A DNA stretch of 64,000 nt from Nitrospirota bacterium. Lineage in GTDB: Bacteria > Nitrospirota > 9FT-COMBO-42-15 > HDB-SIOI813. This document shows positions 24,338 through 46,532 of this stretch, piece by piece. Below the pieces are notes generated by a model. That model saw nothing but the letters and a program-made list of their open reading frames with translations, did not search any database and had not been told where the DNA came from. The stretch covers positions 1,391 to 65,390 of the forward strand of contig JACRGV010000005.1 of NCBI GenBank assembly GCA_016212215.1. The letters are read 5' to 3'. The position numbers and the translations under genes are program-made. The first letter of the stretch is position 1, and every line of letters starts with the position of its first letter.

Positions 24338-24363
24338 AGTAAGCCACCCCCTGACTATTTAAA

Positions 24364-24417
24364 AGAAAAAACCCTCCGCCCCCAGATAGTGCATCATAAT
24401 TTTAAGGAGCGGAGGGA
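24364..24417 (-). terminator. Rho-independent terminator downstream of flagellin.
   Basis: mRNA-sense CCCUCCGC-(loop)-GCGGAGGG followed by UUUUUUCUUUU. Confidence 0.6.
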
Positions 24418-24440
24418 ATTTTGTTTAATTAATATTAATT

Positions 24441-25559
24441 TTATCCTAATAGCTTAAGAACCATTTGCGGAGTCATGTTTGCCTGGGCAAGCATCGCATT
24501 ACCTGCCTGCATAAGCACCTGGTTCTTTGTAAATGAAGTCATTTCAAAAGCCATATCCGCATCCCTGATAATGGAATCTGCTGCAATAGTATTTTCTATG
24601 GTGGCCGCCAGATTACTTGCTGCAAACTGCAGCCTGTTCTGTTTAGCACCTATATCACCGCGTTTTGTTGTCACATAAGATATTGCAGTATCAATATCAC
24701 TCAGCGCACTCTGGGCAGATGCTGCTGACGTAAGGGTCACATCGAATGTAGCGCCGTCTTTTAAACTAGATGTCTTAAGATTACCTATTGCCAGAGATAT
24801 TCTGTCATCGGAGCTGCTTGATGCTCCAACCTGGAAATCCTGAGTTCCGGCAACTACGGTAAAATAAGCAGCATTCAACTCATTACTTACACTATAATTG
24901 CTGTCAAGGGTTATCTTAACTCCAAGTGATTTGAAGTCCAAAGTCTGTGCCCCTGTCCCTGACAATGTGATCGTCTGGGTTATAGAGCCATTCCAGAGAG
25001 CTATTGTATTATCTCCAGCATCTGTAATTGTATATGTGGCAGATGTATCTACTACCCCTGAAACATCTATCTTTGCAGCACTGGCAATACCGGCGGTGAC
25101 TAAATTCTGGCTGCCTATGCTTGCAGTAGCACCGAAGTTGCCGTTAATAAGGGTATTTGAACCGTACTTTGTAGAATTGGCAATACGATCTATTTCCTGT
25201 TCAAGCTGTGTAGCTTCATCATTCAGCTTAGTCCTGTCTGTAGATGTCAGGTTAGCAGAAGATGCCTGTGTTGCAAGCTCTTTGAGCCGCTGTAAAATAT
25301 TTCCGACTTCATTTGCACCGCCTTCAGCCACCTGTAAAATGGCCATGGCTTGAGATGTATTATCGCTTGCCTTCTTGAATGAACGTATGTTTGCTCTTAA
25401 TGATTCGGAAATTCCAAGACCTGCTGCATCATCACCTGCTCTGTTGATTTTGTAACCTGATGATAATTTTTCCAAAGACTTTGAAAGCATATCATCCGAT
25501 CCGCCTAATGAACGGTGGGCATTGAAAGCGGCTATGTTGTTGTTAATCCTGAGTGACAT
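24441..25559 (-). CDS. fliC: Flagellin.
   Basis: MSLRINNNIAAFNAHRSLGGSDDMLSKSLEKLSSGYKINRAGDDAAGLGISESLR... N-terminal D0/D1; C-terminus ...QANMTPQMVLKLLG. Confidence 0.95.
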   Translation of the reverse strand: MSLRINNNIAAFNAHRSLGGSDDMLSKSLEKLSSGYKINRAGDDAAGLGISESLRANIRSFKKASDNTSQAMAILQVAEGGANEVGNILQRLKELATQASSANLTSTDRTKLNDEATQLEQEIDRIANSTKYGSNTLINGNFGATASIGSQNLVTAGIASAAKIDVSGVVDTSATYTITDAGDNTIALWNGSITQTITLSGTGAQTLDFKSLGVKITLDSNYSVSNELNAAYFTVVAGTQDFQVGASSSSDDRISLAIGNLKTSSLKDGATFDVTLTSAASAQSALSDIDTAISYVTTKRGDIGAKQNRLQFAASNLAATIENTIAADSIIRDADMAFEMTSFTKNQVLMQAGNAMLAQANMTPQMVLKLLG

Positions 25560-25560
25560 G

Positions 25561-25630
25561 GTTAATCCTCCTTGATTGATTTACTAAGGTTTTCTTTGCC
25601 TTAGTTTGTTACGGCATCCTTGCCGTATGA
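25561..25630 (-). promoter_or_regulatory. Flagellin 5' leader with two CsrA-type binding sites: BS1 hairpin ACGGCAAGGAUGCCGU and BS2 AUCAAGGAGGAUUAACC overlapping the SD.
   Basis: BS1 is a 6-bp stem presenting AAGGAU in the loop, matching the CsrA SELEX consensus RUACARGGAUGU. BS2 is CAAGGAGG at the SD, 8 nt from the AUG. The arrangement mirrors the B. subtilis hag leader. Confidence 0.55.
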
Positions 25631-25721
25631 ACCGGACTTATCTTAAAATCGGGAGCCGGCCCTTCTCCACTTTTTCAATCTCACCTGCCTTTCCTTTTTT
25701 ATTGTCTCGTTGATGGTAATT

Positions 25722-25750
25722 TTTATCGGAGATGGTATGAATAACTTTAA
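25722..25750 (-). promoter_or_regulatory. Sigma-28 (FliA) promoter for flagellin: TAAAGTTA-N11-TCCGATAA.
   Basis: mRNA-sense TTAAAGTTATTCATACCATCTCCGATAAA against the consensus TAAAGTTT-N11-GCCGATAA, 14/16 with correct spacing, about 165 nt upstream of the fliC ATG. Confidence 0.6.
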
Positions 25751-28700
25751 TAGGTATCTGCAAGCAATACCAGTGAAGTCTTATAAGACTCCATAGCCTC
25801 ATGCAATAAAGACCTAGCCTCAAATGATTCGCCGATGGAGTCAAAGATTTTTGAAAGTTCTTTTGTTGAATTTATTTCAATATCAATATTCATTTCAGTA
25901 TATTTTAATACCTTGTTACATGCCTCAACACAAGATTGTAAATCTCTTGTAAGTGCAAATAGTCTTGATAAAGAAATGTGCAATGTTAAAGCATTCGGGT
26001 CAATATTCAATGCCTTAGAAAAATATTCTGCGGCTTCATAATATTCCCCGGCTTCCATTAAACAACAGCCGGAATAATAATATTTCAGGTAATCCATTTT
26101 CTTTATTGGTAACGGATATGAGCTGATCTCTATATTTAGATTTTGATGAACTTCCATTTGCTTCAATGCTTCGCTGTATCTTCTTTGAAAGAACAATGCC
26201 TCTCCCAAGAAAAAATATCCGGTAGCAAATTCAGGGAAAAGGGCAATCAACTCCTCGTATATTTTTACGGCATCATCTTGTTTATCCGATTCCCTGTAAA
26301 ATTGGGCCAGCTTAACATAAGCAAACGGATACCAATCCATGTTCCTTACTGCTGATCCCTTCTGAATTCTTGCTTTATCCATATAATATATAGCCTGAAC
26401 AATATCTCCAATGCAATAGAAACTATTCGCCAGATAAAATAGTTTTAAAGGGTCATCCGGAGTTAATGCAAGCTCTTCCATCAGCAGTGGTATATTCCTC
26501 TTAACCTTCATCCTGATTTCATCATCATTCCTGTAACCATAATGTTCAACATTAATATCAAGAGGCGTCACTTTAATACCGGTTTGTTTTAGCGAACCAG
26601 ACACATCCTCATGGACTTTTCCTTTAAATTCAATACCCGGGATATTCGGGAATATCCTGAGACTCCGGAAACTTTCTTCCTCATGATTAAGCTCGTTTAT
26701 TTGATTATTCCGTTTGCTTGTTATAATGATAGAATACGCCTCTGCTTTGCCGTTATAGCTATTAGAACTGTTACGTGTTTCGGGCAGGGTTTCCTTTAAC
26801 TTCAGAATCATATCTTTTGATTCCTGGGATATTTTTTCATCTGCATCAAGCCATAATATATAATCACCGGAGGCATTTTTGATTGATATATTTCGAGGGC
26901 CTGAGAAATCATCTTTCCATTCAGTCTGTAGTATTTTTGCCCCATAAGAAGATGCTATCTTCAGAGTATCATCTATAGAACCGGTATCAACGACTATAAT
27001 CTCATCAACAATATTTGCGACTGATTCAAGACATTCTTTCAACACAGCCTCTTCATTTCTGACTATCATACAAAGTGATAATTTTGGTTTCTTTAAATTT
27101 ACCTTTTTTAATTCATTCAATAACATTGAGACATCATCTAAATGCTGATTCAGCAGCAACGCCTTCTCCAATGACTCAACAGCATGACTTTTGTCGTCTA
27201 ATTTAAGGTAAGATAATCCTATATTTTTATAACATGACGCATAATCAGGTTTTAGATCAATTGCCTTCTTATAATAAATAATGGCCTTATCATAATCTCC
27301 AATCTCATAATAAGCAGAGGCAATGTTATTATATAACCCGGGGTTATCAGGTTCTTTGTTGATACCTTGATTTAAATAAACTATAGCTTCCCTGTGAAAT
27401 CCAAGTGTTATCAGACTTGCCCCAAGATACCCATGAACAAAGGGGAAGTCAGGATTTATGTCCAATACTTTTTTAAATGCCTCAACAGCCTCAGCCGCTA
27501 ATCCATATTCACAGCACTCTATCCCATATTCATAATATGCCTTTGGATTTTCCGGTTCTTCTTCAATCTTCATCCTACAGTAATTTATATACTTAATCCT
27601 TTTCTCTCTTAAAGATAATCCTGATTTTCCTGCACCATAATGATGAACCGGTATGGCAGTCTCTCCAATTATGAGTTTCAGATTTCTTACAGAATCTTCT
27701 ACCAATTCATGAATAACCCCGCTGAATCTTATTCTGCGGTCATTCCTGAACAACCTTACCTTACGGGACGGGAACCATCCTGAATTGCCGCTGCCCTCTT
27801 TATATGAGTTGTCATTTTGTATCCAGACTGCCCCCCTTGAATCATTTATATAATTTCTTGTTAAGAAACTAAAAGCATCATATTCCTTACTTTCACACAG
27901 CAATCTCAATGATTCAATATCTCTCTCTGCAATTATCTCATCCGCATCCAATATTAGTATCCAATCCTTTGTTGCAAGGTCAAGAGACATATTCCTTGCA
28001 TCACTGAAATTATCATTCCATTTAAAGTTGTAGACTTGTGCCCCATATTCGCGTGCAATCTCAATAGTCCTGTCTTCTGAACCGGTATCAACAACTATCA
28101 CTTCGCTTACTATGCGATGCACAGACTTGATGCATTGTGCCAGATTTGCTTCTTCATTTTTAACTATCATGCAAAGAGAAATGCCATGCGTAACTTCTCC
28201 TTCTTTTATACTCTTATTAACTGTCATAAAAAGATCGTTCATAAAGGTCAAAGCAAATCCCCCCCTTTGTTCAAGGGGGGGCTGGGGGGGTATTTTCGGA
28301 TAAAGATCGTTAAGACTTTTTTTAATTAATGTATTGGAAGGATCTTTCTCCAATGCCTTTTTATAATAATATTCTGCATCTGCATATTTACCTGTTTTCT
28401 TATACGCTAATCCAAGATTTAAGAGGAAGGATGATTCATCCTTGTCGAGTGCAGATGCCTCCATGAATATTGGGATACTACTCTCGTATTCCTTATTCTG
28501 TAGAAACGATACTCCGACTGTATTCAGCCGGCAGATATAATTCTTTGACCCCGGGATTAAAGCCTTTTTAAAATGTATACCAGCCTTCTCTTTATTTGAT
28601 AACTTTAGATAAGCCTGTCCTATAAAAAGATTTGCCTTTTCATAAGCCTCCCCCTTCTCCTCCGGTTCATAATTATTATCAGGCATGTTTTCATAAATAT

Positions 28701-29880
28701 TAATAAGCCTTTCCATTCTGTCGGTATATGTATGTTCGCATAGAACCCTCTGATAACCGGCCTCTGCAATCTTTCTCATCTGAGCAGGATTACTCAGGTA
28801 ATAACCGGTAAGTCTGTTTAATTCCTCTTTATCCCTGTAACATATTATCTCTTTTCCTATTAAAAAGTACTCTTCCAATTCCTCTTTGAAATCCGTCAAT
28901 AGAAAGGACATGCATGCAGGGACATCAAATACCCTTTGATTAACTGCTGTAACAAGCTGTGTCCTTGAAATGTTAAGGTTTATCAATGAGGCATTGTATA
29001 CCTTAGGAAGGTCTTCAAAATAATCTACCGCCGGATGAAGGCTGCATTTATCTAAAACCATTAGCCAGCTCTTGTTTCCATATATCCTGATACCATATTT
29101 TAGAAGAGGCCGTATCAATTCTGCTCTGTAATCCCTGCCTGATTCATGCTCAATAATTATATTGATAACCCATGGAATATCCTCCTGCGGATATATTGGA
29201 TTTAATCTAAAGTAATCTAATGCTGACTGATATATTTCAGGAGTACTTTTCTTAGTACCTTTTTTAAGGTTTTCTGAGGCAAGCCTTATTACATCATTCA
29301 TCTCTTTCGGCATGTCAACCCATCTGTTTCTAAGTACATTTCTTAATAATGCACACTTGTCGGCATAACTATAACCCACAAAGCTTATATCTGTTTTGTA
29401 TTTCGCGATATCAGCAGTATCAAGAGTCAGCGGCTTGAAATAATTATCATCTGCACCAAGAGGAAGGTGGTAGGTTTCAGTCATGCCCAGTTTCTTCATC
29501 TCCTCGCACTGATGTTTATCATATACAAGTTTTGTAAATAAATCTGAGTGATTATATTGCCCATAATTAAGCACTATGAGCGGATTATCTACGAACCAGA
29601 TGAATACATGAATATTCAGTATCCTATAGGCTGATAATAATATCCCATCCCTGTCACAGGTTTTTCCATTTATATCCAGAATAAGGTCAGGACCAAAAGG
29701 GATTATCTCTTTGAGCAGGGCTAACGGATCGAATAGGTCGAAGACATTAGAACCCTCCTCGCCCTTCAATTTCATTAGTTGTACGGTATGTCCGATTGCC
29801 TGGAGCCCCCGTACACAGCTTGGGCCGATATAACCTTTTTCATGGTCAATTACAGTAATTTTTAATTTTTCTTTTTTCAT
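25747..29880 (-). CDS. Giant multi-domain glycosyltransferase (1377 aa): CgeB-like GT domain - TPR - GT2 - TPR - GT2 - TPR.
   Basis: CgeB/DUF3880-like tail NISRTQLVTAVNQRVFDVPACMSFLLTDF. Two GT2 cores (LCMIVKNEEANL...VVDTGSEDRT...DADE and LCMIVRNEEAVL...VVDTGSIDDT...DADE). Multiple TPR blocks. An in-frame repeat insertion (KIPPQPPLEQRGG) lies in a linker. Confidence 0.8.
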   Translation of the reverse strand: MKKEKLKITVIDHEKGYIGPSCVRGLQAIGHTVQLMKLKGEEGSNVFDLFDPLALLKEIIPFGPDLILDINGKTCDRDGILLSAYRILNIHVFIWFVDNPLIVLNYGQYNHSDLFTKLVYDKHQCEEMKKLGMTETYHLPLGADDNYFKPLTLDTADIAKYKTDISFVGYSYADKCALLRNVLRNRWVDMPKEMNDVIRLASENLKKGTKKSTPEIYQSALDYFRLNPIYPQEDIPWVINIIIEHESGRDYRAELIRPLLKYGIRIYGNKSWLMVLDKCSLHPAVDYFEDLPKVYNASLINLNISRTQLVTAVNQRVFDVPACMSFLLTDFKEELEEYFLIGKEIICYRDKEELNRLTGYYLSNPAQMRKIAEAGYQRVLCEHTYTDRMERLINIYENMPDNNYEPEEKGEAYEKANLFIGQAYLKLSNKEKAGIHFKKALIPGSKNYICRLNTVGVSFLQNKEYESSIPIFMEASALDKDESSFLLNLGLAYKKTGKYADAEYYYKKALEKDPSNTLIKKSLNDLYPKIPPQPPLEQRGGFALTFMNDLFMTVNKSIKEGEVTHGISLCMIVKNEEANLAQCIKSVHRIVSEVIVVDTGSEDRTIEIAREYGAQVYNFKWNDNFSDARNMSLDLATKDWILILDADEIIAERDIESLRLLCESKEYDAFSFLTRNYINDSRGAVWIQNDNSYKEGSGNSGWFPSRKVRLFRNDRRIRFSGVIHELVEDSVRNLKLIIGETAIPVHHYGAGKSGLSLREKRIKYINYCRMKIEEEPENPKAYYEYGIECCEYGLAAEAVEAFKKVLDINPDFPFVHGYLGASLITLGFHREAIVYLNQGINKEPDNPGLYNNIASAYYEIGDYDKAIIYYKKAIDLKPDYASCYKNIGLSYLKLDDKSHAVESLEKALLLNQHLDDVSMLLNELKKVNLKKPKLSLCMIVRNEEAVLKECLESVANIVDEIIVVDTGSIDDTLKIASSYGAKILQTEWKDDFSGPRNISIKNASGDYILWLDADEKISQESKDMILKLKETLPETRNSSNSYNGKAEAYSIIITSKRNNQINELNHEEESFRSLRIFPNIPGIEFKGKVHEDVSGSLKQTGIKVTPLDINVEHYGYRNDDEIRMKVKRNIPLLMEELALTPDDPLKLFYLANSFYCIGDIVQAIYYMDKARIQKGSAVRNMDWYPFAYVKLAQFYRESDKQDDAVKIYEELIALFPEFATGYFFLGEALFFQRRYSEALKQMEVHQNLNIEISSYPLPIKKMDYLKYYYSGCCLMEAGEYYEAAEYFSKALNIDPNALTLHISLSRLFALTRDLQSCVEACNKVLKYTEMNIDIEINSTKELSKIFDSIGESFEARSLLHEAMESYKTSLVLLADTY
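28255..28292. repeat. GC-hairpin repeat copy in-frame within the 1377-aa GT.
   Basis: cccccctttgttcaagggggggctggggggg. Confidence 0.7.
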
Positions 29881-31160
29881 AACATTTCTAAAATACGTCT
29901 TGCCTCTTCATTTCCGGGGTCATATTTGACGGATAGTCCTATCTCTCTTTTTGCATCCTCTCTTTTCCCTGTTTCAGCGTATATCAGACCAAGATAAAAT
30001 CTCGGCATGCTGTACTGAGGATTTATTCTGACTGCTTCCATAAACTCCTCTGATGCCTCTTTCTTTTTACCGAGTAAATAATAGGCCACACCAAGATTAT
30101 GCCTTGCAATAGAATGATTAGGGTAAACGCGTATAACTTCTCTGAAATGAAGCAAAGAATTGTTAATATCACCGTTTTTAAAGAATATTTCTCCCAGCAT
30201 ATAGTGGGCATTGAAATGCGCTGGTTTTATCCTGATGACATTCAGCAGGAATTTTAATGCCTCATCGGCACGCCCCCTCTTTACCAGAAAATTAGCAAAA
30301 TTATATTGAAACATCGCATTATCGCTATTTAACCTCAATGCCTTTAAATAGAATTTTTCAGACTTCAGGTCATCTGATTTCTCTTCTGATAGTAAAGCAA
30401 GCTCATGATAAGCATCACCAAAACCCGGTTTGGAATCTAATAACTCATTCAGCAATTGTTCTGCCTTTTCAAGTAAGCCTGCTTCTATATTCAGGCGTGA
30501 AGCCCTTAATAAATATTCCGTATTTCCGGGATATTCCCTTGCACGTTTCTCCTCTAATAACGCATAACGCTGTAATTTATTCTTGAATTGATCTTCACCC
30601 CTCATAAATCCATAATGATGAATCGGTATATGAGAATCCTGAAACTGTAATCCTTTATCCTTCATGCTGTCTTCAAGCGTCTCATGAATCCTGCCTTTAT
30701 ATCTTATCCCAAGACCATTCCTGAAAAGCCTGACAAGCGGGAAAGGATGGAACCCTGAAATGCTCATACTTTCTTCATAATCCATTGGATTAGGCAGCCA
30801 TCCGATTATATTTGATTTTTCACTATAATTTCGCAGAATAAAAGTATATCCTGCATATTTTTGGGTTTTTATTAATTCACTTATCTTTGAAAGGTCCCTG
30901 CCTGCGATGGCTTCATCAGCATCAAGTACAAGTATCCAGTCACCTGATGCCTTTGAGATTGAAAAATTCTTTGCCTCACTGAAATCATCATTCCAGTTGA
31001 AGGGGAATACTCTTGCATTGAATCTATTTGCTTCCTCAACCGTCCTGTCGGTAGAGCCTGTATCAACAACAATAATCTCATCTGCTATTTGCTGTACGCT
31101 GGATAATGCCCTGCCGATAACCTCCTCTTCGTTTTTAACAATCATGCAAAGCGTCAACAT
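29877..31160 (-). CDS. GT2 glycosyltransferase with C-terminal TPR repeats.
   Basis: MLTLCMIVKNEEEVIGRAL...IVVDTGSTDRT...LDADE; TPR (AYHELALLSEEKSDDLKSEKFYLKALRLN...). Confidence 0.8.
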   Translation of the reverse strand: MLTLCMIVKNEEEVIGRALSSVQQIADEIIVVDTGSTDRTVEEANRFNARVFPFNWNDDFSEAKNFSISKASGDWILVLDADEAIAGRDLSKISELIKTQKYAGYTFILRNYSEKSNIIGWLPNPMDYEESMSISGFHPFPLVRLFRNGLGIRYKGRIHETLEDSMKDKGLQFQDSHIPIHHYGFMRGEDQFKNKLQRYALLEEKRAREYPGNTEYLLRASRLNIEAGLLEKAEQLLNELLDSKPGFGDAYHELALLSEEKSDDLKSEKFYLKALRLNSDNAMFQYNFANFLVKRGRADEALKFLLNVIRIKPAHFNAHYMLGEIFFKNGDINNSLLHFREVIRVYPNHSIARHNLGVAYYLLGKKKEASEEFMEAVRINPQYSMPRFYLGLIYAETGKREDAKREIGLSVKYDPGNEEARRILEML

Positions 31161-31198
31161 AATATTTCCTTATAGTAACAGTCTTTGTTCATCCAATA

Positions 31199-31290
31199 AC
31201 CCCATCCCCACCCTACCCCTCCCCTTGAAGGGGAGGGAATCAACGTAGCCCCCTCTCCCTCAGGGAGAGTGTCCGGGTGAGGGTGGGGTT
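31199..31290. repeat. GC-hairpin repeat, double-hairpin form.
   Basis: cccatccccaccctacccctccccttgaaggggagggaat...ccctctccctcagggagag...gggtgagggtgggg. Confidence 0.8.
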
Positions 31291-31339
31291 TTCATTGCCC
31301 TTTGTGAGCGCCCCGCTCATGACGGTTCATCCAATAATC

Positions 31340-31378
31340 CCATCCCATCCCTAACCCTCCCCTTGAAGGGGAGGGAAT
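31340..31378. repeat. GC-hairpin repeat copy. Together with 31186-31240 it forms a tandem duplication of the 'ttcatccaataaYcccatccc...' unit.
   Basis: cccatcccatccctaaccctccccttgaaggggagggaat. Confidence 0.8.
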
Positions 31379-31413
31379 GAACTTTAGTATCCCTATACCC
31401 TTCATTTTTTATC

Positions 31414-33123
31414 TTATACATTGACTAAACCGATTCTCTGAAATACAGCACTTGTAATCTCATTCAAAATTATTATCATTCCGGATGATAATAATTTTAA
31501 CAGCCTGTATATCTCCATTGTTTCTCTTATTATCTGTATTGGGTTTTCTTCATGAATACTTGCCTTCTGCATACGGTAAAACGTAGTCAAAGGTCTTATA
31601 TGTTCTGTACCTGAGCCTTTCTCATAAATTAATAAATCAATAATCTCAATATCTTCCATCTTTTCCTGAATGGTGTTTATATAACTTTCTTCATTAGAAA
31701 ATATATTGGAAAGGGTTTCTTCAGCTTTTATTAATCCACGTTCTGCAAAACACTCTAAGACCCTGAGCGCTGATATTAAATCATCAGATTTTTTATCAAA
31801 AGTATCCGGTAAACCTGTTATATCCTTATCTGTTATATCAAAGGTCTCTTTCAGCCATTGGATCTCAGATACAGGAACACTTCCAACTTTTCTGTTGCCC
31901 AGCACATCCTTCCATAGCCTCTTATAGGCAAGCATTAAAATATCATTGAATGTAAGCGGCCTTTTAACAAGCGGGACATACGATATGAACCCGTCATCAT
32001 CAAACATTGAGATATTTACTTCAATGTTTTTGTTATTACAATTTATTGAATTATCCGGATTCAACGCATGGTTAATAACAGAAAACACATCCCCTGAAGA
32101 AATGTTATGCCGGCATTTATAATCAATTGAACATTCATCCTTCCACATACATGGATAACAATCAATAACAGGTGATATTGTTATATGCCCTCTGCCGTAC
32201 GGCCCGGTTTCAATGGGATATGCATGACATATATATAAGCCTATAACCCTTGTGCCGGCTGCGCTTGATAAATGTACAGTTCCTGTGTCATTGCTGACAA
32301 GTAATTTACAACGTTTTAATATGGCGGCAAGCTGTGAAAATGTTGTCTTTCCTGTCAGGTCAACAACGCCGGGATTATCATTTTTAATAGTCTGAGTAAT
32401 ATCCCTTTCAGGGTTTGTTCCAAGGACAATAACCTTTATTCCAGAATTTATGAGCAATCCGGCAAGTTCTGAGAATCTCTCTTTGGGCCAGATACGCCTC
32501 CTGATACTTGCACCCGGCTGTAAGGCTATAACCGGTGTCCCGTCACTCAACCCTTCTTCATGGAATAGCTTCATAGCAAACTCGTCTGCTGAATCACCTG
32601 TCTGGAACCCGCTCATGTCTTCAACAGGGGATCCATATTCGTAATTTCTGAAAACATCAATAATATGGAAAGGGTTGTACTCTCTGGTTTGAACCACACA
32701 CCCCATGTAATTTGCCCATGACCCGTTAACTATCCGTTCGCCATTGCTTCCTGTTGTAAACCCGACCGTGTCAGGTACTTTCAATAGTGACGTTATAAGT
32801 GTTGTTATCTTATTAAAATTAAGATTAATAATGCGATCAAATCTAATATCCCTCAGACCCTCTATAACATTTTTCAGATACCTGTAACCGTATAATATAA
32901 TTTCAGTCTCATCCAATCCGCTCATTCCGCCGGGAAGATTAAGCCAGTCTGCAATCATAACTGAATCAACCTCTTTATAACCCATTAATATATCCTTAAC
33001 TTCTTCACGTGCTAATACTGTGACGTGAGAATCCGGATGAATTTGCTTAATACCCTTTATCAATGGGACTATGAACAGGTTATCCCCAAATCTGTCGAGT
33101 TGAATCAAAAGTATCTTTACCAT
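31414..33123 (-). CDS. GT9-family (heptosyltransferase-like) glycosyltransferase with a C-terminal extension domain.
   Basis: MVKILLIQLDRFGDNLFIVPLIKGIK... and ...SNDTGTVHLSSAAG are GT9 hallmarks; about 220 aa of extra C-terminal sequence. Confidence 0.65.
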   Translation of the reverse strand: MVKILLIQLDRFGDNLFIVPLIKGIKQIHPDSHVTVLAREEVKDILMGYKEVDSVMIADWLNLPGGMSGLDETEIILYGYRYLKNVIEGLRDIRFDRIINLNFNKITTLITSLLKVPDTVGFTTGSNGERIVNGSWANYMGCVVQTREYNPFHIIDVFRNYEYGSPVEDMSGFQTGDSADEFAMKLFHEEGLSDGTPVIALQPGASIRRRIWPKERFSELAGLLINSGIKVIVLGTNPERDITQTIKNDNPGVVDLTGKTTFSQLAAILKRCKLLVSNDTGTVHLSSAAGTRVIGLYICHAYPIETGPYGRGHITISPVIDCYPCMWKDECSIDYKCRHNISSGDVFSVINHALNPDNSINCNNKNIEVNISMFDDDGFISYVPLVKRPLTFNDILMLAYKRLWKDVLGNRKVGSVPVSEIQWLKETFDITDKDITGLPDTFDKKSDDLISALRVLECFAERGLIKAEETLSNIFSNEESYINTIQEKMEDIEIIDLLIYEKGSGTEHIRPLTTFYRMQKASIHEENPIQIIRETMEIYRLLKLLSSGMIIILNEITSAVFQRIGLVNV

Positions 33124-33326
33124 CCCGGCTCTCCTTTATATCTCTTGATTACGCCTTCAAGTAACAGGAATATTTCTTCAGCCTCAGTAAATCTGCCTGA
33201 ACCGCTCTCAATATGTTCTCTGATTGTTCTGAAATTAAATATCTTATCCTGGGGAATATTTTTGAGATATTCGGATAAAGCAGGATCAATACTTTGCATT
33301 TTCAAAACCATTCCGATTGTTGTCAT
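33117..33326 (-). CDS. Small hypothetical protein upstream of, and overlapping, the GT9 gene.
   Basis: 69-aa ORF in operonic position; no motif. Confidence 0.25.
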   Translation of the reverse strand: MTTIGMVLKMQSIDPALSEYLKNIPQDKIFNFRTIREHIESGSGRFTEAEEIFLLLEGVIKRYKGEPGW

Positions 33327-33333
33327 TTATTGA

Positions 33334-33412
33334 CCACCCCCACCCTAACCCTCCCCCGTCAAGGGGGAGGGAATAATTGATATAACCTCTCCGTCAAGTG
33401 GGAGGGAATATT
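33334..33412. repeat. GC-hairpin repeat (two hairpins).
   Basis: ccacccccaccctaaccctcccccgtcaagggggagggaat...ctctccgtcaagtgggagggaat. Confidence 0.8.
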
Positions 33413-33416
33413 ATTT

Positions 33417-36400
33417 TTAGTACGAATTATTTTTCCTCTGTTCAAACTCTGCTACAACCTGTTGTACCTCGGGATTGCCGGGCTGTTTCAAATTAGCGAG
33501 CCGTATCACATCCTCTGCGTCCTTCATATCCCCCTGTTCAAGGAAATACCGGGAAAGGAATATATATGTCTGAATGTAATGGGGGTCAATTTCGAGAGAG
33601 TCCACAGCATATTGAAGTGCTTCAGAGATATTATGTAGTTCCTTTGCAATACAGGCAAGTTTATAGAGGGATTCAGCAAATGTCGGATCTTTGCTTAAAT
33701 CGTCTTTGTATATGGAGATCGCTTCTGTTAATTTCTTATCCTGAACTAATTGTTCCGGTAATGTGTGTGTATCGTACGAATGGTGATTGCATGGTATGTC
33801 TGCATCAACTACTATGCCGCCTGCTTTTATGATAAAAAAACCTTCCCCGCGAACACGACGCTGCAAGAACCAGAACATCTCCTCGTCATTGTTGCTAATG
33901 GCAAGCCCCTGTATACAGGGGCGAATCAGTTTTCCGTTGATTACAGAAATAGACATATCTGCATACTGAATAATCTCTACACTTTTTCCGTTTCCTGTTC
34001 GGTGTGCATGTGTAAGAGGGGCGTAGTTGCCGGTGGGGACAGTTATTGCAGCATCCGGGTATCCTAATGCAATGTCAATTATTGCGCGAACTTTTTCCTG
34101 TGACGGATTCAGTTTTTTATCAATAAGGACAATGAAATCGTATTGTCCCTTCGTCATCGTTTCTATCAGCCAGGGTTGTATCGGATCTCCGCCAGGGGAA
34201 ATGATCTCCCCTCTGTAGAACTCTGCAATGGAAGTGTAGCTTCTCAGGTGATCCGCAGGTATAGATGTGCCGCCGCCTCTTTCTACAATAGCTATACGTG
34301 GGAACCTAATGACAGTGTTTTCCGCCACCGGGATGAGATCGTCCGGTTCATAAGGCATTAATGTAAGTTTACCCTGTTGCCCTACTTCTATTCGTTCATT
34401 TTTATTAAGTTTTATAAAATATTTTTCCTTGTTGATATTTTGAGACGGCCCGAACATATCCGCCCGGTATCTGCTTGTGGTAACGCTGCCGAAGTGGTGG
34501 ATAAAAACGTCATTAGCAACGATCAACCTATATCCTGCTAAAAGAAGCCGCAAGGTTAAATCGTCATCACTAAAGCCATATCCGCCGTCTCTGCCATTGG
34601 TAGGAAGATCAGGGTCCCACCCTCCAATCCTTTCTAATATCTCCTTTTTTATAATATAAAGCATACCAACTACTCTCTGAGTTTCGAAATTCGATCCTTT
34701 GTGGTTCTTTCCCCACTCGGCTGCAAATGTCTGGTAAGCTTCTAAGGTGTCATACTCTGCTTGAGCAGCCTGTGGGCCGCTTATATTGTTTGAGCGTGGC
34801 CCAACCATTGCTATGTCAGGCGCAGATTCGATTTGTCCGATGAAATTATGCAGCCATCCCTCGTGCACAATCGTGTCATTGGTGACAGCGACAATGTATT
34901 TTCCTAGTGTAAGTGAAGCTACATAGTTGCCGAGATATTCAACATTGCGGTTCTGATAATTTCTAATAATGCGGGTATTGGGATGGAATGTCTTGACAGA
35001 TTCAAAATATTCATAAGTACCGTCTGTTGAGCCGTTATCAACGAGCAGTAATTCGTAATGGCCTGTAGTATAATGTAAAATACTCTCTACGCACAGCCTG
35101 GTGTATTGAATCTGATTATATGCTAAAACGATAATACTTGTCATAATGCTTTCGTTATCTCCCAGGTTATTCGATTGCAAGGTATCAATAGAAGAGGAAA
35201 GGCTATTCACAGGAGCAGGCGGAATTGATTGAAGAAAAGGAGATGGGCTGACGTGCGGCAGAGTCTTGGCATTAGCAGGGAATCCGACATGGTTAAATAT
35301 TCCCAAAAGCCGGTGCGTCCAAGTATGTTCGGCAATCGTCCGCTCGTATCCACGCTGTGCAATCACCTCACGTTCGTGAACATGGGAAAGATAATACATG
35401 GATTTGTCAATCAATTCTTCCGGAGAGGATGCAAGCACAACTTCCCTGTCAGGCTCATAGTACTCTTCCAAATGGTCAGCAGGTGTTGTAAGCAGGAATC
35501 CCCTGCACCCCGGTATCTCAAAAATCCTTTTACTAATCTTATGGTCATCGCTGCCAATAGAATCACCAATATTTAGATTTATCTTTGTTTGATTATAAAT
35601 CCTCACCATATCTTGATACGGTATGTCCATTGACCCGGGCCAACCGAAACCGAAAACATCAATAGCGAAACGGTTTTGGCGTATCTTCTCTATTATGTCT
35701 GAACGATTATCCTTAGCCGAACCAACAAAGCTCATATCTCGCGTCCTGACGCCTGGCATTTGTTGATAAGTAAATGGGTTGAATGCCCACTGGCTTTTAA
35801 TAACTTTATGACCGAAACCGGCTTGTTGGTATTTGCCTATGTCTTCATGCGAGGTGGTTATAATGTGGTCAACGCAGGGTGCCCAATGCTGCGCGTTATA
35901 ATCAAAACTATGACGGTCATCGTTCATCCAGATGATTGTTTGTGTATCTGTATGATCAGTAATTGAGCGCAATGCTTCAGGCAGAATGTCCGCATGAATG
36001 TTAAACGGGCTGTATAAGAACAGATCAAACTGTTCTTTACGAACAATTTCCATGAGCCTGTCCGACATGCCGGCAACCCCTCGCTGCTGCGCCTCGGTGA
36101 CGAAATCATAAAATTGCACCTGTACGTCCTCAAAGCGATTAAGTGCATCGTACATGTTCCACCAATTATAATCATATCCTCTTTGTGCATTGCCGGAATT
36201 ATATTTGGCTCCGGCAACCAATACCTTTATCGCCGGTTTCTTTCTGATAAGGGAAAACTTGTGATCCCGCACAGCAGGTACCATAAGCCCCTGTATTCGC
36301 GAGATCAACTGCTCTCTAATGATTTTATTATTATACAGTTCAGGAGGCGAGGCACTCGATAAATGCTTCCATGACCACATCACAGGATTACTTATAAACT

Positions 36401-38843
36401 GCCAGGCCCTTACCGTTGGCGGTACGGCTTTACCTTCTGTCCATGTTCTGTCCCCGTCAAATAGTGTGTCTAATGATTTTGATGATGCTCCGGCACACAC
36501 TTCCACCAGAGAATCATAAAGCGCATAAGAGGAGTACTTACGCAAGTTTCCGTTAATTATCCACGCGTCAATCGCTGAGACATATCCTTCATATTCTTTC
36601 TGGGACATATTTCTAAGATAGTTGTCGAGTTCTCCAAGGCCGGCAAATCTACGAAAATCAATGAAGCATTCTTCTGAAATATAATCCCCGATATTAGAGG
36701 CACCTAAGTATATAGGCACTGTCCTCGCTTCAAAACAATCGAGAATCTTTTCTGTAATGTAACCGGCAGACAGCGTCTGATGGTTAGTGTTCTCAAAACA
36801 TAGGCTGTAGCGGTATTGTTTCAGTACAGATATTTTTTGACCATCCGGGATTGCACCGCAGTAATTGGTCATTTGGAAAGCTGTTCTGCCGTATACATCA
36901 AAGGGGATTGCCGAGTTTTTAGAAAACCACTCTGCAACCTCAATGCGTTTTGAGTAAAGCTCACCTGGTACATGAGAATGTTTATTGCCGCTGATCATAC
37001 AGATCGCATTCTTACGGCCCATTAAAGGGTAAAGCAATTCGCGCTGACGCGGCATTTCAGTGACCGGTTCCTTTGTTGATCCATCAGCACGCGGAAATAG
37101 TATCTTCTTGAATCTATTGTCCTGTCCGATAAGCGCATCGAATAGCGTGAAAACATAGTCAAAATGCTTCCAGACACGCTCATCAAATTCACCGGGTAAC
37201 ACAACAGCAGGTTCGAGCATGACAAGGATATTTAAACCAGGCCGCTTGCCCCGGTAACTGAACGAATTGTGATATGCATAATGGTCACATCCTTCTATAG
37301 GAAGTTGAGACCAGAGAATAGATACATTGCCTCTATGAACTTCAGTAACATAATTCGGGCGTAAATGCCCATATACAATATTTATTGTGAACCTGTGCCG
37401 GCTGCCGGGATGAGGGATTACAGTCCTCAAATTAAACTCCTGTTCAAGTTTTGCAAGCTCTCCACGTATAGGTATAGAATGATCTATGGTTGTACAGAAT
37501 TCTTTGCTGACAAATATACCGTTAGTGCGATTATCAAATACCAAAAGATAATCATGCTGTTCCAGAAATTGTACAATTTCATTACCACCGACATTAATCT
37601 CAATGATTATAAGGGATGGCCGATAACGGTTCCAATCATTGCTTTTCAAAACAGCAAGGTCGTAGCCCTCCGCATCAACAGACAGAAAATCTATCTTCTG
37701 CCCTTTAAGGTGTGACTCTAAAATATCAACAAGTTTTACAACAGGAGCCGGCTCTTCAGAGACTAACGCAGCACCATAGATTTTTCCGGCCTGAATGGCA
37801 GCCTGTTTGTTGAAGGAAGAGAGGGTATCTGCCGACATGCGATAAAATGTCATGGTCCCGGCTTCCGGTCCGACACCGACTTTAAGATTGATATCCCGGA
37901 CTCTCTTTTCACAGAGTTTGGCGTGAAGATTAGGTTCGGGTTCTATATTGATACCGCACCATCCTCTATTATAAAACAGCTTGGTGTTACTGATTACATC
38001 CGGGTCATTTGCCCCAATGTCTATATAGACGCCTGTTTTTTTGTGCGATAGCAGGGCATCTATGACCACATCTTCACCGTATTGACTATACGATTTTAGG
38101 AATGAGTTCGGTAATACCTTGGGGACTAACAGTTCACGTTCCATAATGAATTCAATATGGTCGGATGATTTTTCTCCTTTGACCCTCCACCGGACATCCA
38201 TTTCCCATGCTGCTTCAGCCTGCTGTGGAGATACAGGGTCAATCCACAACACATCATAATTTTCAGATAAGAGTTCTGTAAAATCACTGAATTTACTTTC
38301 CGGTATTCCAAGGTATCTTGGCGGTGTATTGTCAGGTTCAACTTCGCACTGGATTTCACGAATCTGCCCTTTTTGGATCATATCTTTGAGGGATTTCAGG
38401 ACAGTAAGGTCCATCCCCTGCAAATCTGTAATCAGCGTGTCTATTTCCTGAATGTTATTGGTTATACAAAAATCATGAAGATTTATTGCAGGTACTTTTA
38501 TCTTCTTTTGTGAAGTAAGCAAGCCGCTTATCATGTGCCCAAACTCAGGGTTAGGCATGCCGAGAGAAGAAGCAGGGTCCCAATTTGTCGTAATTGTAAA
38601 CTCTACGTCCTCCCCGCTCTTTTCTGTCAAAGCCCCGTAAATAAATTTTACATTGGGATCATTTTTATACATGTTGCCGGCATTTACCACTTTATCCGGA
38701 TTGGCATCAAAGCCATAACACATATCGAAATATGGTCTGATGCGGCTGAAGTTGACTAAATTGTGAATTCCACAATAAAACAATATTTTCATCGGCAAAC
38801 CTCTCATAGTGTTTTCTATTGTTGTAAACTGTTTATTTTGCAA
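33417..38843 (-). CDS. Giant multi-domain protein (1808 aa): 2x FkbM-type methyltransferase - GT10-like fucosyltransferase motif - CgeB-like GT - GT2 - TPR.
   Basis: FkbM motifs (GVYIDIGANDPDVISNTKLFYNRGWCGINIEPEP). GT10 signature YRYSLCFENTNHQTLSAGYITEK. CgeB tail (NIGDSIGSDDHKISKRIFEIPGCRGFLLT). GT2 core (IIVLAYNQIQYTRLC...LLLVDNGSTDGT). C-terminal TPR. Confidence 0.8.
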   Translation of the reverse strand: MQNKQFTTIENTMRGLPMKILFYCGIHNLVNFSRIRPYFDMCYGFDANPDKVVNAGNMYKNDPNVKFIYGALTEKSGEDVEFTITTNWDPASSLGMPNPEFGHMISGLLTSQKKIKVPAINLHDFCITNNIQEIDTLITDLQGMDLTVLKSLKDMIQKGQIREIQCEVEPDNTPPRYLGIPESKFSDFTELLSENYDVLWIDPVSPQQAEAAWEMDVRWRVKGEKSSDHIEFIMERELLVPKVLPNSFLKSYSQYGEDVVIDALLSHKKTGVYIDIGANDPDVISNTKLFYNRGWCGINIEPEPNLHAKLCEKRVRDINLKVGVGPEAGTMTFYRMSADTLSSFNKQAAIQAGKIYGAALVSEEPAPVVKLVDILESHLKGQKIDFLSVDAEGYDLAVLKSNDWNRYRPSLIIIEINVGGNEIVQFLEQHDYLLVFDNRTNGIFVSKEFCTTIDHSIPIRGELAKLEQEFNLRTVIPHPGSRHRFTINIVYGHLRPNYVTEVHRGNVSILWSQLPIEGCDHYAYHNSFSYRGKRPGLNILVMLEPAVVLPGEFDERVWKHFDYVFTLFDALIGQDNRFKKILFPRADGSTKEPVTEMPRQRELLYPLMGRKNAICMISGNKHSHVPGELYSKRIEVAEWFSKNSAIPFDVYGRTAFQMTNYCGAIPDGQKISVLKQYRYSLCFENTNHQTLSAGYITEKILDCFEARTVPIYLGASNIGDYISEECFIDFRRFAGLGELDNYLRNMSQKEYEGYVSAIDAWIINGNLRKYSSYALYDSLVEVCAGASSKSLDTLFDGDRTWTEGKAVPPTVRAWQFISNPVMWSWKHLSSASPPELYNNKIIREQLISRIQGLMVPAVRDHKFSLIRKKPAIKVLVAGAKYNSGNAQRGYDYNWWNMYDALNRFEDVQVQFYDFVTEAQQRGVAGMSDRLMEIVRKEQFDLFLYSPFNIHADILPEALRSITDHTDTQTIIWMNDDRHSFDYNAQHWAPCVDHIITTSHEDIGKYQQAGFGHKVIKSQWAFNPFTYQQMPGVRTRDMSFVGSAKDNRSDIIEKIRQNRFAIDVFGFGWPGSMDIPYQDMVRIYNQTKINLNIGDSIGSDDHKISKRIFEIPGCRGFLLTTPADHLEEYYEPDREVVLASSPEELIDKSMYYLSHVHEREVIAQRGYERTIAEHTWTHRLLGIFNHVGFPANAKTLPHVSPSPFLQSIPPAPVNSLSSSIDTLQSNNLGDNESIMTSIIVLAYNQIQYTRLCVESILHYTTGHYELLLVDNGSTDGTYEYFESVKTFHPNTRIIRNYQNRNVEYLGNYVASLTLGKYIVAVTNDTIVHEGWLHNFIGQIESAPDIAMVGPRSNNISGPQAAQAEYDTLEAYQTFAAEWGKNHKGSNFETQRVVGMLYIIKKEILERIGGWDPDLPTNGRDGGYGFSDDDLTLRLLLAGYRLIVANDVFIHHFGSVTTSRYRADMFGPSQNINKEKYFIKLNKNERIEVGQQGKLTLMPYEPDDLIPVAENTVIRFPRIAIVERGGGTSIPADHLRSYTSIAEFYRGEIISPGGDPIQPWLIETMTKGQYDFIVLIDKKLNPSQEKVRAIIDIALGYPDAAITVPTGNYAPLTHAHRTGNGKSVEIIQYADMSISVINGKLIRPCIQGLAISNNDEEMFWFLQRRVRGEGFFIIKAGGIVVDADIPCNHHSYDTHTLPEQLVQDKKLTEAISIYKDDLSKDPTFAESLYKLACIAKELHNISEALQYAVDSLEIDPHYIQTYIFLSRYFLEQGDMKDAEDVIRLANLKQPGNPEVQQVVAEFEQRKNNSY

Positions 38844-39895
38844 AGTGACAAATGGTGTGCAATTGTTCGTTCAATGGCTGTCCTAAGATCAACGACCTGT
38901 CTAATTCCTAAATTTATTTGTGCCAGCTTTGTCAACGGTACATATCGTTCGGCTGGCCTGTCTGCGTCAGGTAATTTGGCTATTCTCACCTCAATAGGCT
39001 TCTGAAAACTCTTTGCCACCGTATCAGCTACATCCGCAATAGTTATATCATCTTCCGAGCCGACGTTATATGCCCTGCATGACTCGCCATTAAAAAGGAT
39101 CGTCCATAACCAGACGGCCAAATCAGCAGCGTAGAGGTAGGAGCGATAAGGCGTCCCATCCCCGTTGACCAGGATAGGGCCGCCATTCAATGCATCCCGT
39201 ATGAAATTCCCAATTGCGTAATGGATATCTAAGGGCAAGTGGGGGCCGACAAAGGAAAAACATCGGGCGATCTTAGTTTCGATGCCATACCTGCTTGAAT
39301 AATACGCACATAGAAATTCTGCTGCACGTTTGCCTTCTCCCCAAGCGGAGTTTGGATCAGCAGGATCTGGAGCGCCGCAATAATCTTCTGAAATATGGGT
39401 CATGCCGGATGGTTGTTTACCATAGACAACCCCGGAACTTGTATAAAGAAACTTTCTTGCATGACACTGAACAGCAAAATCAAGGGTATGCCTTGTTCCC
39501 TCGACAATGGTATCGAACTTCACCAGTGGGTCTTCGTTGTTGAACGTGGCAATGGCTGATGTGGCGGCGGCGTGAATGATGTGTGAGAATTCCCCTTCAG
39601 GGAAACTGAAATCCCTGACATCTCCAATATGAAATTTGATTGCCGGATTGGCAGCAAGGTGTGGTGCATTCTTTTGGAACGTATCGTAATTCCTCGTAAG
39701 AACAATGGCTGATGCATTAAGATCGAGGTTATCATTCGCCCAGGCAAAACTCTCCAAAAGCCAGCAGCCGAAAAAACCGGTGCCGCCGGTAATAAACAGG
39801 CGTTTCCCCCGGAGGTCTTCCCAAAGACCTCCGGTATGTGTCAGAATATAATCCAAATCCCCTGTAAGAGGGTTATCTCGAAGATTGCTATGCAT
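38816..39895 (-). CDS. NAD-dependent NDP-sugar epimerase/dehydratase/reductase (extended SDR).
   Basis: Rossmann motif ITGGTGFFG, with the YxxxK catalytic region downstream. Confidence 0.8.
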   Translation of the reverse strand: MHSNLRDNPLTGDLDYILTHTGGLWEDLRGKRLFITGGTGFFGCWLLESFAWANDNLDLNASAIVLTRNYDTFQKNAPHLAANPAIKFHIGDVRDFSFPEGEFSHIIHAAATSAIATFNNEDPLVKFDTIVEGTRHTLDFAVQCHARKFLYTSSGVVYGKQPSGMTHISEDYCGAPDPADPNSAWGEGKRAAEFLCAYYSSRYGIETKIARCFSFVGPHLPLDIHYAIGNFIRDALNGGPILVNGDGTPYRSYLYAADLAVWLWTILFNGESCRAYNVGSEDDITIADVADTVAKSFQKPIEVRIAKLPDADRPAERYVPLTKLAQINLGIRQVVDLRTAIERTIAHHLSLCKINSLQQ

Positions 39896-39972
39896 ACAAA
39901 TGGCCTTCTAACGCAAGATGATCCATCGGGTTATCCTCCCCACATAATATCTTTTTCTACGTAATTCATGGC

Positions 39973-41088: not shown

Positions 41089-41152
41089 AATATTTATCTC
41101 CTTATTAAATTGATTTAATATCTAAGAACCATAACTAAGAGTTTATAATCAG

Positions 41153-42817: not shown

Positions 42818-42825
42818 TTTTCATG

Positions 42826-46521: not shown

Positions 46522-46532
46522 TCAGAAATCTC

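Follow-up and report, generated by a model that had tools for sequence, protein, structure and literature searches.

Two giant glycosyltransferase genes beside fliC

We analyzed a 64,000-nucleotide (nt) stretch of a Nitrospirota metagenome-assembled genome (MAG; assembly GCA_016212215.1, contig JACRGV010000005.1), hereafter the window, in which two very large genes, g1377 and g1808, each encode a fusion of several glycosyltransferase (GT) domains with tetratricopeptide repeat (TPR) blocks, upstream of the flagellin gene fliC. The sizeable genes between ~6 and 64 kb all lie on the minus strand, with a 261-amino acid (aa) open reading frame (ORF) at 56269-57054 (+) as the sole exception. Read 5′ to 3′ on the minus strand, the order is flgI ... 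flgK, flgL, csrA, fliW, the island described here, fliC, flaG, fliD, and fliS. The island is a ~30-kb block (25747-55819, -) between fliW and fliC and comprises g849, g468, ten sugar genes, g1808, a 69-aa ORF, g569, g427, and g1377, after which fliC follows; the region under study is its 3′ half. In six genes, the island carries 11 recognizable GT domains, 2 methyltransferase (MT) domains, and 7 TPR blocks, and a cryptic GT-A-like domain in g1808 comes on top of the 11. Pfam gathering scores served as the threshold for domain calls, and NCBIfam equivalog cut-offs were used for the sugar genes. The island encodes both nucleotide-sugar biosynthesis enzymes and GTs and sits in the filament cluster adjoining the flagellin gene, as a flagellin glycosylation island does.

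The flagellin gene (24441-25559, -) encodes a 372-aa protein with Pfam Flagellin_N and Flagellin_C domains, which we presume to be the acceptor; its central domain is 27% Ser+Thr by composition, the only sequence-level hint of glycan attachment. An earlier sequence-only reading of this DNA had reported two giant ORFs directly downstream of the flagellin promoter region. Both ORFs exist at the lengths and positions that it gave (1377 aa at 25747-29880 and 1808 aa at 33417-38843), apart from the start of the larger gene, which we moved to an ATG at 38792. Their position relative to the promoter had to be corrected: both giants are on the minus strand and lie upstream of fliC, and the sigma-28-type promoter-like site (25723-25749, -; TAAAGTTA-N11-TCCGATAA) overlaps the stop codon of g1377. 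This site, which is 164 nt ahead of the fliC ATG, is the only one in the window to match without a mismatch; by analogy with the FliA consensus, it serves as the putative fliC promoter.

The smaller giant, g1377 (25747-29880, -; 1377 aa), has the architecture DUF3880/CgeB-like GT-B, TPR, GT2, TPR, GT2, TPR, and all of the domains proposed for it from its translation (a CgeB-like GT, two GT2 cores, and three TPR blocks) exceeded their Pfam gathering scores. The N-terminal GT-B region (aa 94-393; 28702-29601, -) is made up of DUF3880 (PF12996, 47 bits, aa 94-172) and Glyco_trans_1_2 (PF13524, 107 bits, aa 253-393), and the TPR blocks span aa ~420-525, 769-931, and 1187-1330. Both GT2 modules (PF00535) resemble GmaR, the flagellin glycosyltransferase of Listeria. 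The first, at aa 568-689 (27814-28179, -), carries a DADE motif, and the second lies at aa 935-1137 (26470-27078, -; Pfam span 935-1030), with residues 931-1137 matching GmaR (PDB 22ao) at E 1.6e-28.

For the larger giant, the listed ORF (33417-38843, -; 1808 aa) begins at a TTG at 38843 that overlaps the preceding gene. The ATG at 38792 has a ribosome-binding site, GAGAGG, 7 nt upstream and is the start used both in NCBI record MBI5191898.1 (1791 aa, "FkbM family methyltransferase") and in most homologues. We therefore take g1808 as 33417-38792 (-), which probably represents the true gene of 1791 aa; residue numbers below are those of the listed 1808-aa ORF. At the base composition of the window, the chance of a stop-free frame is ~1e-55 for the g1808 ORF and ~1e-42 for the g1377 ORF.

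The g1808 protein is a seven-module MT/GT/TPR fusion with the order FkbM, FkbM, GT10, CgeB-like GT-B, GT2, cryptic GT-A-like domain, TPR. The domains earlier assigned to it (two FkbM domains, a GT10 domain, a CgeB-like GT, a GT2 core, and a TPR) again all exceeded their gathering scores, the first FkbM domain as a partial match. That domain (aa 43-172; 38328-38717, -) is divergent, scoring 31 bits against PF05050 (cut-off 22.7) over profile positions 27-152 only and carrying the motif FYCGIHN in place of D.GA..G; it is also the best-conserved N-terminal block among homologues (64-68% identical). FkbM domain 2 (aa 275-433; 37545-38021, -) matches PF05050 with 94 bits over profile positions 1-172 of 173, and its motifs D[IV]GAND (DIGAND here, the SAM-binding motif) and SVDAEG are conserved. 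The GT10 core (aa 631-756; 36576-36953, -) scores 56-57 bits against PF00852 (cut-off 23.9) and belongs to a conserved module at aa ~485-830. The GT10 motif that the sequence-only reading had pointed out is present, the stretch aligns by sequence with the Helicobacter pylori alpha1,3-fucosyltransferase (PDB 2nzw, E 5e-9), and the residues LCFEN, GY.TEK, and P.Y.GA.N are invariant in 26 homologues. A CgeB-like GT-B module begins at aa ~870, with Glyco_trans_1_2 at aa 1048-1179 (35307-35702, -; PF13524, 110 bits), followed by a GT2 (GT-A) domain at aa 1235-1451 (34491-35141, -; PF00535 and PF13641) whose DNGS.DGT and SDDD blocks are invariant.

We modeled the C-terminal part of g1808 (aa 1225-1808, 584 residues) with AlphaFold2 using 15 homologues (pLDDT 81, pTM 0.82). 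The model comprises a GT-A domain, a second alpha/beta domain, and a TPR solenoid, and its best PDB matches, in a search dominated by the GT-A domain, were the tandem-GT-A polymerases PmHS2 and K4CP and polypeptide GalNAc-transferases (ppGalNAc-transferases). The GT2 region, with a pLDDT of ~90, matched ppGalNAc-transferases, PmHS2, and K4CP in Foldseek. The following residues, aa ~1490-1700, have no Pfam match. Within them, a segment we call domain X (aa 1509-1686; 33786-34319, -) reached a pLDDT of 83 when modeled alone and gave weak Foldseek matches (E ~1e-4, TM ~0.5) to GlmU, CMP-Kdo synthetase, HAS, and ppGalNAcT; no recognizable DXD motif is present in it. These weak matches suggest that domain X may be a cryptic domain with a GT-A/nucleotide-diphospho-sugar-transferase-like fold. 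The C-terminal TPR block (aa 1716-1798; 33450-33698, -; PF14559) matches the OGT TPR domain in the PDB and forms helical repeats in the model.

Homologues of the giant genes

The search for g1808 homologues (5.8 billion proteins; NCBI, JGI, ENA, and Logan assemblies) returned ~26 full-length proteins, 47-70% identical, and pairwise maps showed the same domain order. An identical 1791-aa ORF is present in an independent Logan assembly (run SRR12113407), and two homologues, 2724 and 2888 aa long, are encoded on large contigs (1.08 and 1.24 Mb). For g1377, we found at least three full-length homologues (1347-1364 aa) that are 60-68% identical over a full-length alignment, as well as shorter ones that lack only the first TPR block. 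The full-length, colinear homologues of both giants come from unrelated samples. Identity along g1808 is high in the catalytic cores and low in the linkers at aa 768-867, 1168-1217, and 1518-1567, which is the pattern of a true multi-domain protein.

Paralogous modules within the island are 28-38% identical at the protein level, and at the DNA level they share only short, module-level similarities (60-78% over at most 263 nt). They are too divergent for a collapse of repeats to be credible, and we rejected repeat-driven misassembly on this ground. Frameshifts or assembly artifacts merging separate genes, one of two results that the sequence-only reading had itself named as overturning it, were thus looked for through homologues, re-assembly, and repeats and were not found. 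The other, domain searches that fail to back the GT10, FkbM, and CgeB-like assignments, did not occur either, since all of these exceeded the curated thresholds. These comparisons establish both giant ORFs as genuine single genes.

Members of the g1808 family occur in two phyla (Nitrospirota and Desulfobacterota), range from 1,550 to 3,080 aa, and have up to seven or more modules. FkbM domain 2 is cleanly absent in seven homologues and FkbM domain 1 in three, and most homologues carry extra C-terminal GT2/TPR units, typically GT2-TPR-GT2-TPR, by which they reach 2400-3077 aa. A full HMMER scan of 1.84 billion cluster representatives, in which 530 clusters reached E ≤ 1e-30, found the GT10-like and FkbM-like modules both as stand-alone proteins (~350 and ~240 aa) and within giants of up to 3928 aa, in agreement with the earlier remark that these domains are often encoded by separate genes elsewhere. 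Other combinations occur as well: a radical SAM/SPASM domain is fused to GT2-TPR in one 2312-aa protein (P0046), and another of 1409 aa (P0062) joins radical SAM, CgeB-like, and GT9 domains. The recurrence of fused combinations of radical SAM, GT9, CgeB-like, GT2, MT, and TPR domains in other sequences argues for a joint function.

Flagellar context is retained among relatives. The related MAG GCA_023248365.1 has the same gene order with near-equal sizes and 61-65% identity, and both giants again lie directly upstream of fliC: radical SAM/SPASM, epimerase, the 1716-aa giant, a 69-aa ORF, GT9 (570 aa), GT2-TPR (427 aa), the 1360-aa giant, fliC (372 aa), flaG, fliD (889 aa), and fliS. Relative L008 contains two additional, inserted GT genes, of which one encodes an 899-aa fusion of GT-B, MT, and GT2; the island thus varies between relatives, like flagellin glycosylation islands elsewhere. 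Distant homologues of g1808 were found in Smithella and other deltaproteobacterial MAGs. The comparison with related taxa, which had been put forward as a check, placed the homologues beside flagellin or other flagellar filament genes in every case, with flagellin, FlaF/FlbT, or FliD within 10 kb in 8/8 loci examined (Nitrospirota and Desulfobacterota). We note that the deltaproteobacterial relatives have FlaF/FlbT and not CsrA/FliW.

The remaining island genes, repeats, and regulatory sites

The sequence-only reading listed three further GT genes as following the giants: a GT2/TPR gene, a CgeB/TPR gene, and a GT9 gene. Genes of the GT2-TPR, CgeB-like, and GT9 types do exist; their placement after the giants and the TPR of the CgeB-like gene did not hold up. 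Of these, the GT9 and GT2-TPR genes are located in the interval that separates the giants, the CgeB-like gene is 13 kb upstream, and a further GT gene, g849, had gone unmentioned.

The GT2-TPR gene, g427 (29877-31160, -), encodes by Pfam a single GmaR-like GT2-TPR module that matches GmaR (PDB 22ao) at E 2.4e-29 and SunS, a peptide S-glycosyltransferase that is the next-best match after GmaR for the GT2-TPR modules, at E 6e-14. Its stop codon overlaps the g1377 start (ATGA). The first gene of the island, g849 (53270-55819, -; 849 aa), contains two such modules according to Pfam, in the order GT2-TPR-GT2-TPR. All five GmaR-like modules (two in g849, one in g427, and two in g1377) keep the signature SLCMIVKNEE..VDTGS..LDADE, and a Pfam TPR block follows each GT2 module in these three proteins. 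They thereby combine the features of the GmaR type: a GmaR-homologous GT-A domain, a TPR directly C-terminal to it, and an intact DXD motif.

A stand-alone protein with DUF3880 and a CgeB-like GT-B domain (PF12996 and PF13524) is encoded by g468 (51661-53067, -). It is 32% identical to residues 6-393 of g1377, and no TPR was detected in it at E ≤ 0.001; the CgeB-like GT-B domains of g1377, g1808, and g468 all passed the Pfam gathering score. The GT9-family gene, g569 (31414-33123, -), is supported by PF01075 (103 bits) and PDB 3tov (E 3e-19), and its 240-aa C-terminal extension (aa 330-569) has no Pfam match. Directly after the catalytic domain, the g569 protein has a four-cysteine cluster, CYPCMWKDECSIDYKC (aa ~322-338), which recalls what we take to be the metal-binding motif of autotransporter heptosyltransferases, enzymes that glycosylate proteins. 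Between g1808 and g569 lies the conserved 69-aa ORF (33117-33326, -), whose sequence includes FNFRTIREHIESGSGRFTEAEEIFLLLEGVIKRYKGEPGW and which shares 7 nt with the start of the GT9 gene; two relatives, L007 and L008, each have a homologous ORF of 69 aa at this place.

Transmembrane-like segments are absent from the island proteins, all of which are predicted to be soluble. Among the island proteins, Pfam gave no match for a phosphoglycosyl transferase, flippase, polymerase, or oligosaccharyltransferase. A Maf domain (MAF_flag10) was likewise not matched among the Pfam-scanned island proteins, a scan that did not include the 69-aa ORF.

Ten genes assigned by Pfam to sugar-nucleotide biosynthesis and tailoring fill the interval 38816-51645 (-). 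They encode RfbF, a CDP-glucose 4,6-dehydratase (RfbG), RfbH, a NeuB-like protein with a cupin domain, a HAD-like protein, a thiamine pyrophosphate (TPP) enzyme, a C-methyltransferase, a B12-radical SAM enzyme with a weak TPR, a radical SAM/SPASM protein, and an SDR epimerase/reductase. RfbF, RfbG, and RfbH scored above their NCBIfam equivalog cut-offs; they make up a complete entry from CDP-glucose to 3,6-dideoxyhexoses. The NeuB-like protein is divergent, at 134 bits below the equivalog cut-offs of 340-400. The TPP enzyme is acetolactate-synthase-like and may be a YerE-like branching enzyme. Together, the sugar genes, an atypical pathway for a flagellin island, suggest a branched, C-methylated deoxysugar, and the donors probably include a CDP-3,6-dideoxyhexose derivative. 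A cassette of TPP-enzyme, NeuB-like, and SDR genes is found again immediately upstream of g1808 homologues from Smithella and further MAGs (L002/L011 and L010). The B12-radical SAM enzyme (41153-42817, -) ends in a weak TPR or LcrH/SycD-like segment. Some of the tailoring steps may take place on the protein-borne glycan or on the GT scaffold.

GC-rich palindromic elements resembling repetitive extragenic palindromes follow many stop codons throughout the window. They have the form CCCTCCCC-TCAA/TTGAA-GGGGAGGG, and a C7-N7-9-G7 type occurs as well. Several copies are in frame within coding sequence, at 28259-28281 (g1377 aa 534-541), at 55439-55459 and 55484-55504 (g849 aa 106-127), and in the g849 linker (54400-54420 and 54508-54524); they translate to PP..PPL..KGG-type peptides. 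The ~20 further copies are mostly intergenic and include 31217-31237, 31355-31375, 33349-33371, 46554-46576, 48161-48183, 49625-49647, 53102-53120, 57517-57537, and 61714-61734. In g1377, the element adds ~28 aa to a linker (aa ~528-556; 28213-28299, -) as an in-frame insertion that is not found in homologues. The palindromic insertions of g849 are at aa 99-133, where a twin copy contributes 34 aa immediately behind the DXD motif of GT2 module 1, and in the linker at aa 432-474. These insertions are reminiscent of the in-frame palindromic elements of Rickettsia. We considered whether fusion could have arisen by read-through of a former intergenic palindrome and rejected this for g1377, whose homologues are fused without the element. 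Read on the coding strand, the g1377 copy at 28259-28281 is also scored as a hairpin of the intrinsic-terminator type, with a 9-bp stem, 7 GC pairs, and a T-rich tail, and it sits at the junction of the CgeB-TPR and GT2-TPR parts.

A second class of repeat consists of tandem heptamers, (TACTTCT)n on the plus strand and AGAAGTA on the coding strand. One array, at 49718-49767 (7 copies), follows the stop codon of the CDP-glucose dehydratase gene, and the other, at 53184-53287 (15 copies), runs across the stop codon of g849.

Between flgL and the island lie csrA (57641-57877, -; 78 aa) and fliW (57013-57492, -; 159 aa), both assigned by eye from their translations. In the fliC leader (25560-25722), GGA motifs occur both in the loop of a hairpin (GGCAAGGATGCC) and within the Shine-Dalgarno sequence (AAGGAGGA), as would be expected if CsrA/FliW controlled flagellin translation. 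A scan for sigma-70 promoters and terminators across 24300-39900 was uninformative, giving no more sites than shuffled sequences or fewer. On the other side of fliC, fliD (21288-23957, -) encodes an unusually long FliD of 889 aa with two FliD_C stretches, a length that is identical in L007 and L008. The 261-aa ORF, the sole plus-strand gene of the flagellar region, has no Pfam match; it has an N-terminal signal-like segment, and its C-terminal tail, VPEPGS followed by a hydrophobic stretch and RLR, resembles a PEP-CTERM sorting signal.

Proposed function and comparison with known systems

We consider it likely that the island, with its two giants, builds a complex methylated glycan on flagellin, stepwise and in the cytoplasm, before type III export. 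The soluble proteins and the lack of lipid-carrier machinery fit a cytoplasmic, carrier-free, stepwise route on the protein itself, and the best argument for a direct action of the TPR-bearing modules on flagellin is that all five GmaR-like modules keep their signature. The earlier suggestion that the TPRs recognize flagellin is supported by GmaR homology, by flagellin binding of the FlmG TPR, and by the flagellar setting of 8/8 loci, and flagellin is the predicted acceptor at this locus.

In the sequence of steps we propose, the TPR blocks would capture newly made flagellin monomers in the cytoplasm before type III export, as in FlmG and as proposed for GmaR. The GmaR-like GT2 modules would place the first sugars on Ser/Thr residues of the Ser/Thr-rich central domain, and the GT10, CgeB-like GT-B, GT9, and second-type GT2 domains would extend these to an oligosaccharide. 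Some of the donors would be supplied by the CDP-3,6-dideoxyhexose/TPP-enzyme/radical-SAM pathway encoded just upstream, and the two FkbM domains would O-methylate the sugars, possibly as a cap. Fusing three to six catalytic domains to a docking domain would hold successive steps on one scaffold. Sequence comparison is our basis for inferring which acceptor and donors are used, in what order the domains act, what the TPRs do, and whether FkbM domain 1 and domain X are active.

Several points weigh against this proposal. The island contains no GDP-fucose pathway (gmd/fcl equivalog) genes for the GT10 domain, whose donor may be another 6-deoxy or a 3,6-dideoxy sugar. FkbM domain 1 lacks the canonical glycine-rich SAM motif and matches its profile only in part, and domain X, judging from its model, may be non-catalytic. 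The TPR blocks could mediate module-module or regulatory contacts rather than flagellin binding, and the hairpin inside g1377 could give rise to a shorter transcript or product. No sigma-28 sites were found before the GT genes, and the number of one-mismatch matches stayed within chance, so any co-regulation with the late flagellar genes is hypothetical. Flagellin glycosylation, full-length products, and donor use are all predicted from sequence alone.

Real enzymes could also have a different main target: they would modify some other flagellar protein (FliD, FlgL, the hook) or a further protein of the cytoplasm, or make a glycan, free or attached to lipid, for export by genes elsewhere. GT9 enzymes classically act on lipopolysaccharide (LPS) cores, and in g1808 the tandem GT-A portion is similar to PmHS2 and K4CP, which are polysaccharide polymerases; carrier-lipid, flippase, polymerase, and transporter genes are nonetheless absent from the island, and its proteins are all soluble. 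The length of FliD and its two FliD_C stretches would suit FliD as the acceptor, whereas the deltaproteobacterial homologues adjoin flagellin and FlaF/FlbT independently of fliD. Adjacency is the only direct link to fliC, but the five GT2-TPR modules share homology with an enzyme that demonstrably O-glycosylates flagellin, and on balance we regard another main acceptor as unlikely.

Quite improbable, in our estimate, is a further explanation under which several of the fused domains are dead and the giants chiefly have a scaffolding or regulatory role, linking flagellin synthesis to glycosylation status in the manner of GmaR, which is bifunctional (PMC9638930). The csrA and fliW regulators flank the island, and FkbM domain 1 and domain X have no canonical motifs. 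Against this, the DADE motif is kept in 5/5 GmaR-like modules, the GT10 catalytic motif and the DNGS.DGT and SDDD blocks of the g1808 GT2 do not vary among homologues, conservation peaks in the catalytic cores, and Pfam detected GT and TPR families only, without any DNA-binding domain. That the giant ORFs are artifacts, whether of misassembly across GT/TPR repeats or of a sequencing error that removed a stop or frameshift, is extremely improbable: the paralogous GT2-TPR and CgeB-like modules, the homopolymer-rich palindromes within the ORFs, and the MAG source would all invite such errors, but the identical ORF from an independent re-assembly, the colinear homologues from unrelated samples (two on contigs of >1 Mb), the conserved order and sizes in the related MAG, and the divergence of the modules stand against it.

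A bolder version of the flagellin-glycosylation proposal is that the giants are glycan assembly lines, in which TPR-held flagellin would meet the catalytic domains in a fixed order and domain order would predict the glycan, a logic that can be likened to the colinearity rule of nonribosomal peptide synthetases and polyketide synthases. We advance this tentatively and regard it as rather doubtful. If it were true, module gain and loss (the loss of FkbM domain 2, the C-terminal GT2-TPR pairs, and the fusions in L008) would reprogram the flagellar glycan between strains. If the domains act sequentially on tethered flagellin, the giants would offer a compact, genetically readable model for how O-glycan order and specificity are set without a template or lipid carrier, as well as parts for cytoplasmic protein glyco-engineering. 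The branched, methylated sugar suggested by the neighboring CDP-dideoxyhexose, TPP-enzyme, and B12-radical-SAM genes merits structural work. Database entries for the giants carry no more than the labels "FkbM family methyltransferase" or "tetratricopeptide repeat protein." The finding is of specialist interest and not surprising in kind.

The closest known relative of the island's modules is GmaR of Listeria, whose N-terminal domain (~180 residues) transfers GlcNAc onto flagellin; the TPR domain behind it is proposed by the authors of the GmaR study to recognize flagellin and also serves anti-repression (PMC9638930). The shared plan is a GT2 (GT-A) domain of ~180-200 aa followed by TPRs, in an enzyme that acts on flagellin in the cytoplasm. 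By sequence, g427 and module 2 of g1377 match GmaR directly, and both modules of g849 and module 1 of g1377 share its motifs. GmaR differs in being a single module with a linker and an anti-repressor domain that adds one GlcNAc, whereas the island has five modules, present twice per protein in g849 and g1377 and, in g1377, fused to another GT class. For an anti-repressor domain, Pfam gives only GT and TPR matches and may hold no such model, and MogR was not searched for; as the domain is not established, we class the island modules as GmaR-like catalytic modules and not as GmaR orthologues.

FlmG, the pseudaminyl/legionaminyl transferase of Caulobacter and Brevundimonas, is encoded with flagellar genes and has exchangeable domains, with the TPR binding flagellin and the GT-B domain carrying donor specificity; in Caulobacter, the TPR domain binds flagellins and the GT-B domain does not (PMC7591256). 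It has one catalytic domain, uses a nonulosonic-acid donor, and is ordered TPR then GT-B, in contrast to GT-B then TPR in the island. The resemblance, drawn here from the description of FlmG, would be functional only. WsaE, from the S-layer glycan system of Geobacillus stearothermophilus, is an MT-GT-GT fusion in which methylation caps the chain (PMC2943079). Like g1808, this soluble, trifunctional protein places an O-methyltransferase at the N terminus ahead of its GTs. It differs in working on a lipid-linked glycan, exported by an ABC transporter and transferred by an oligosaccharyltransferase, and has neither a TPR nor a link to flagellin.

Two similarities concern single parts of g1808. 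Its GT10 domain shares the C-terminal motif ..LCFEN.., ..GY.TEK.. with the H. pylori alpha1,3/4-fucosyltransferase, which is a stand-alone LPS Lewis-antigen enzyme using GDP-fucose, whereas the domain here is internal to a 1791-aa protein. PmHS2 and K4CP, the best structural matches to GT2 plus domain X over ~570-606 aligned columns, fit tandem GT-A-like folds; the identity is 10-13% at a TM of ~0.3, and these enzymes polymerize glycosaminoglycans.

At the level of the locus, the islands of Pseudomonas aeruginosa a-type strains, P. syringae, and Aeromonas hydrophila are likewise next to fliC and contain sugar genes and several GTs (PMC3958885). Oligosaccharides of 7-11 sugars have been described on flagellin, as have methylated flagellin glycans, and the O-linked glycans built by these islands reach 11 sugars in length; they include a heptasaccharide and rhamnose chains with a 2-O-methylated sugar as their cap (PMC3958885). 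The islands are polymorphic between strains and are described as clusters of separate genes (PMC3958885). The present locus, by comparison, concentrates 11 recognizable GT domains, 2 MT domains, and 7 TPR blocks in 6 genes. To our knowledge, the characterized TPR or flagellin glycosyltransferases (GmaR, FlmG, and Maf) have one catalytic domain, and multi-domain GT-TPR proteins are common in metagenomes. We found no description of such fusions at flagellin loci in the searchable literature, whose coverage was incomplete. Flagellin glycosylation islands and TPR-bearing GTs are thus already known, and it is the degree of fusion that sets this locus apart.

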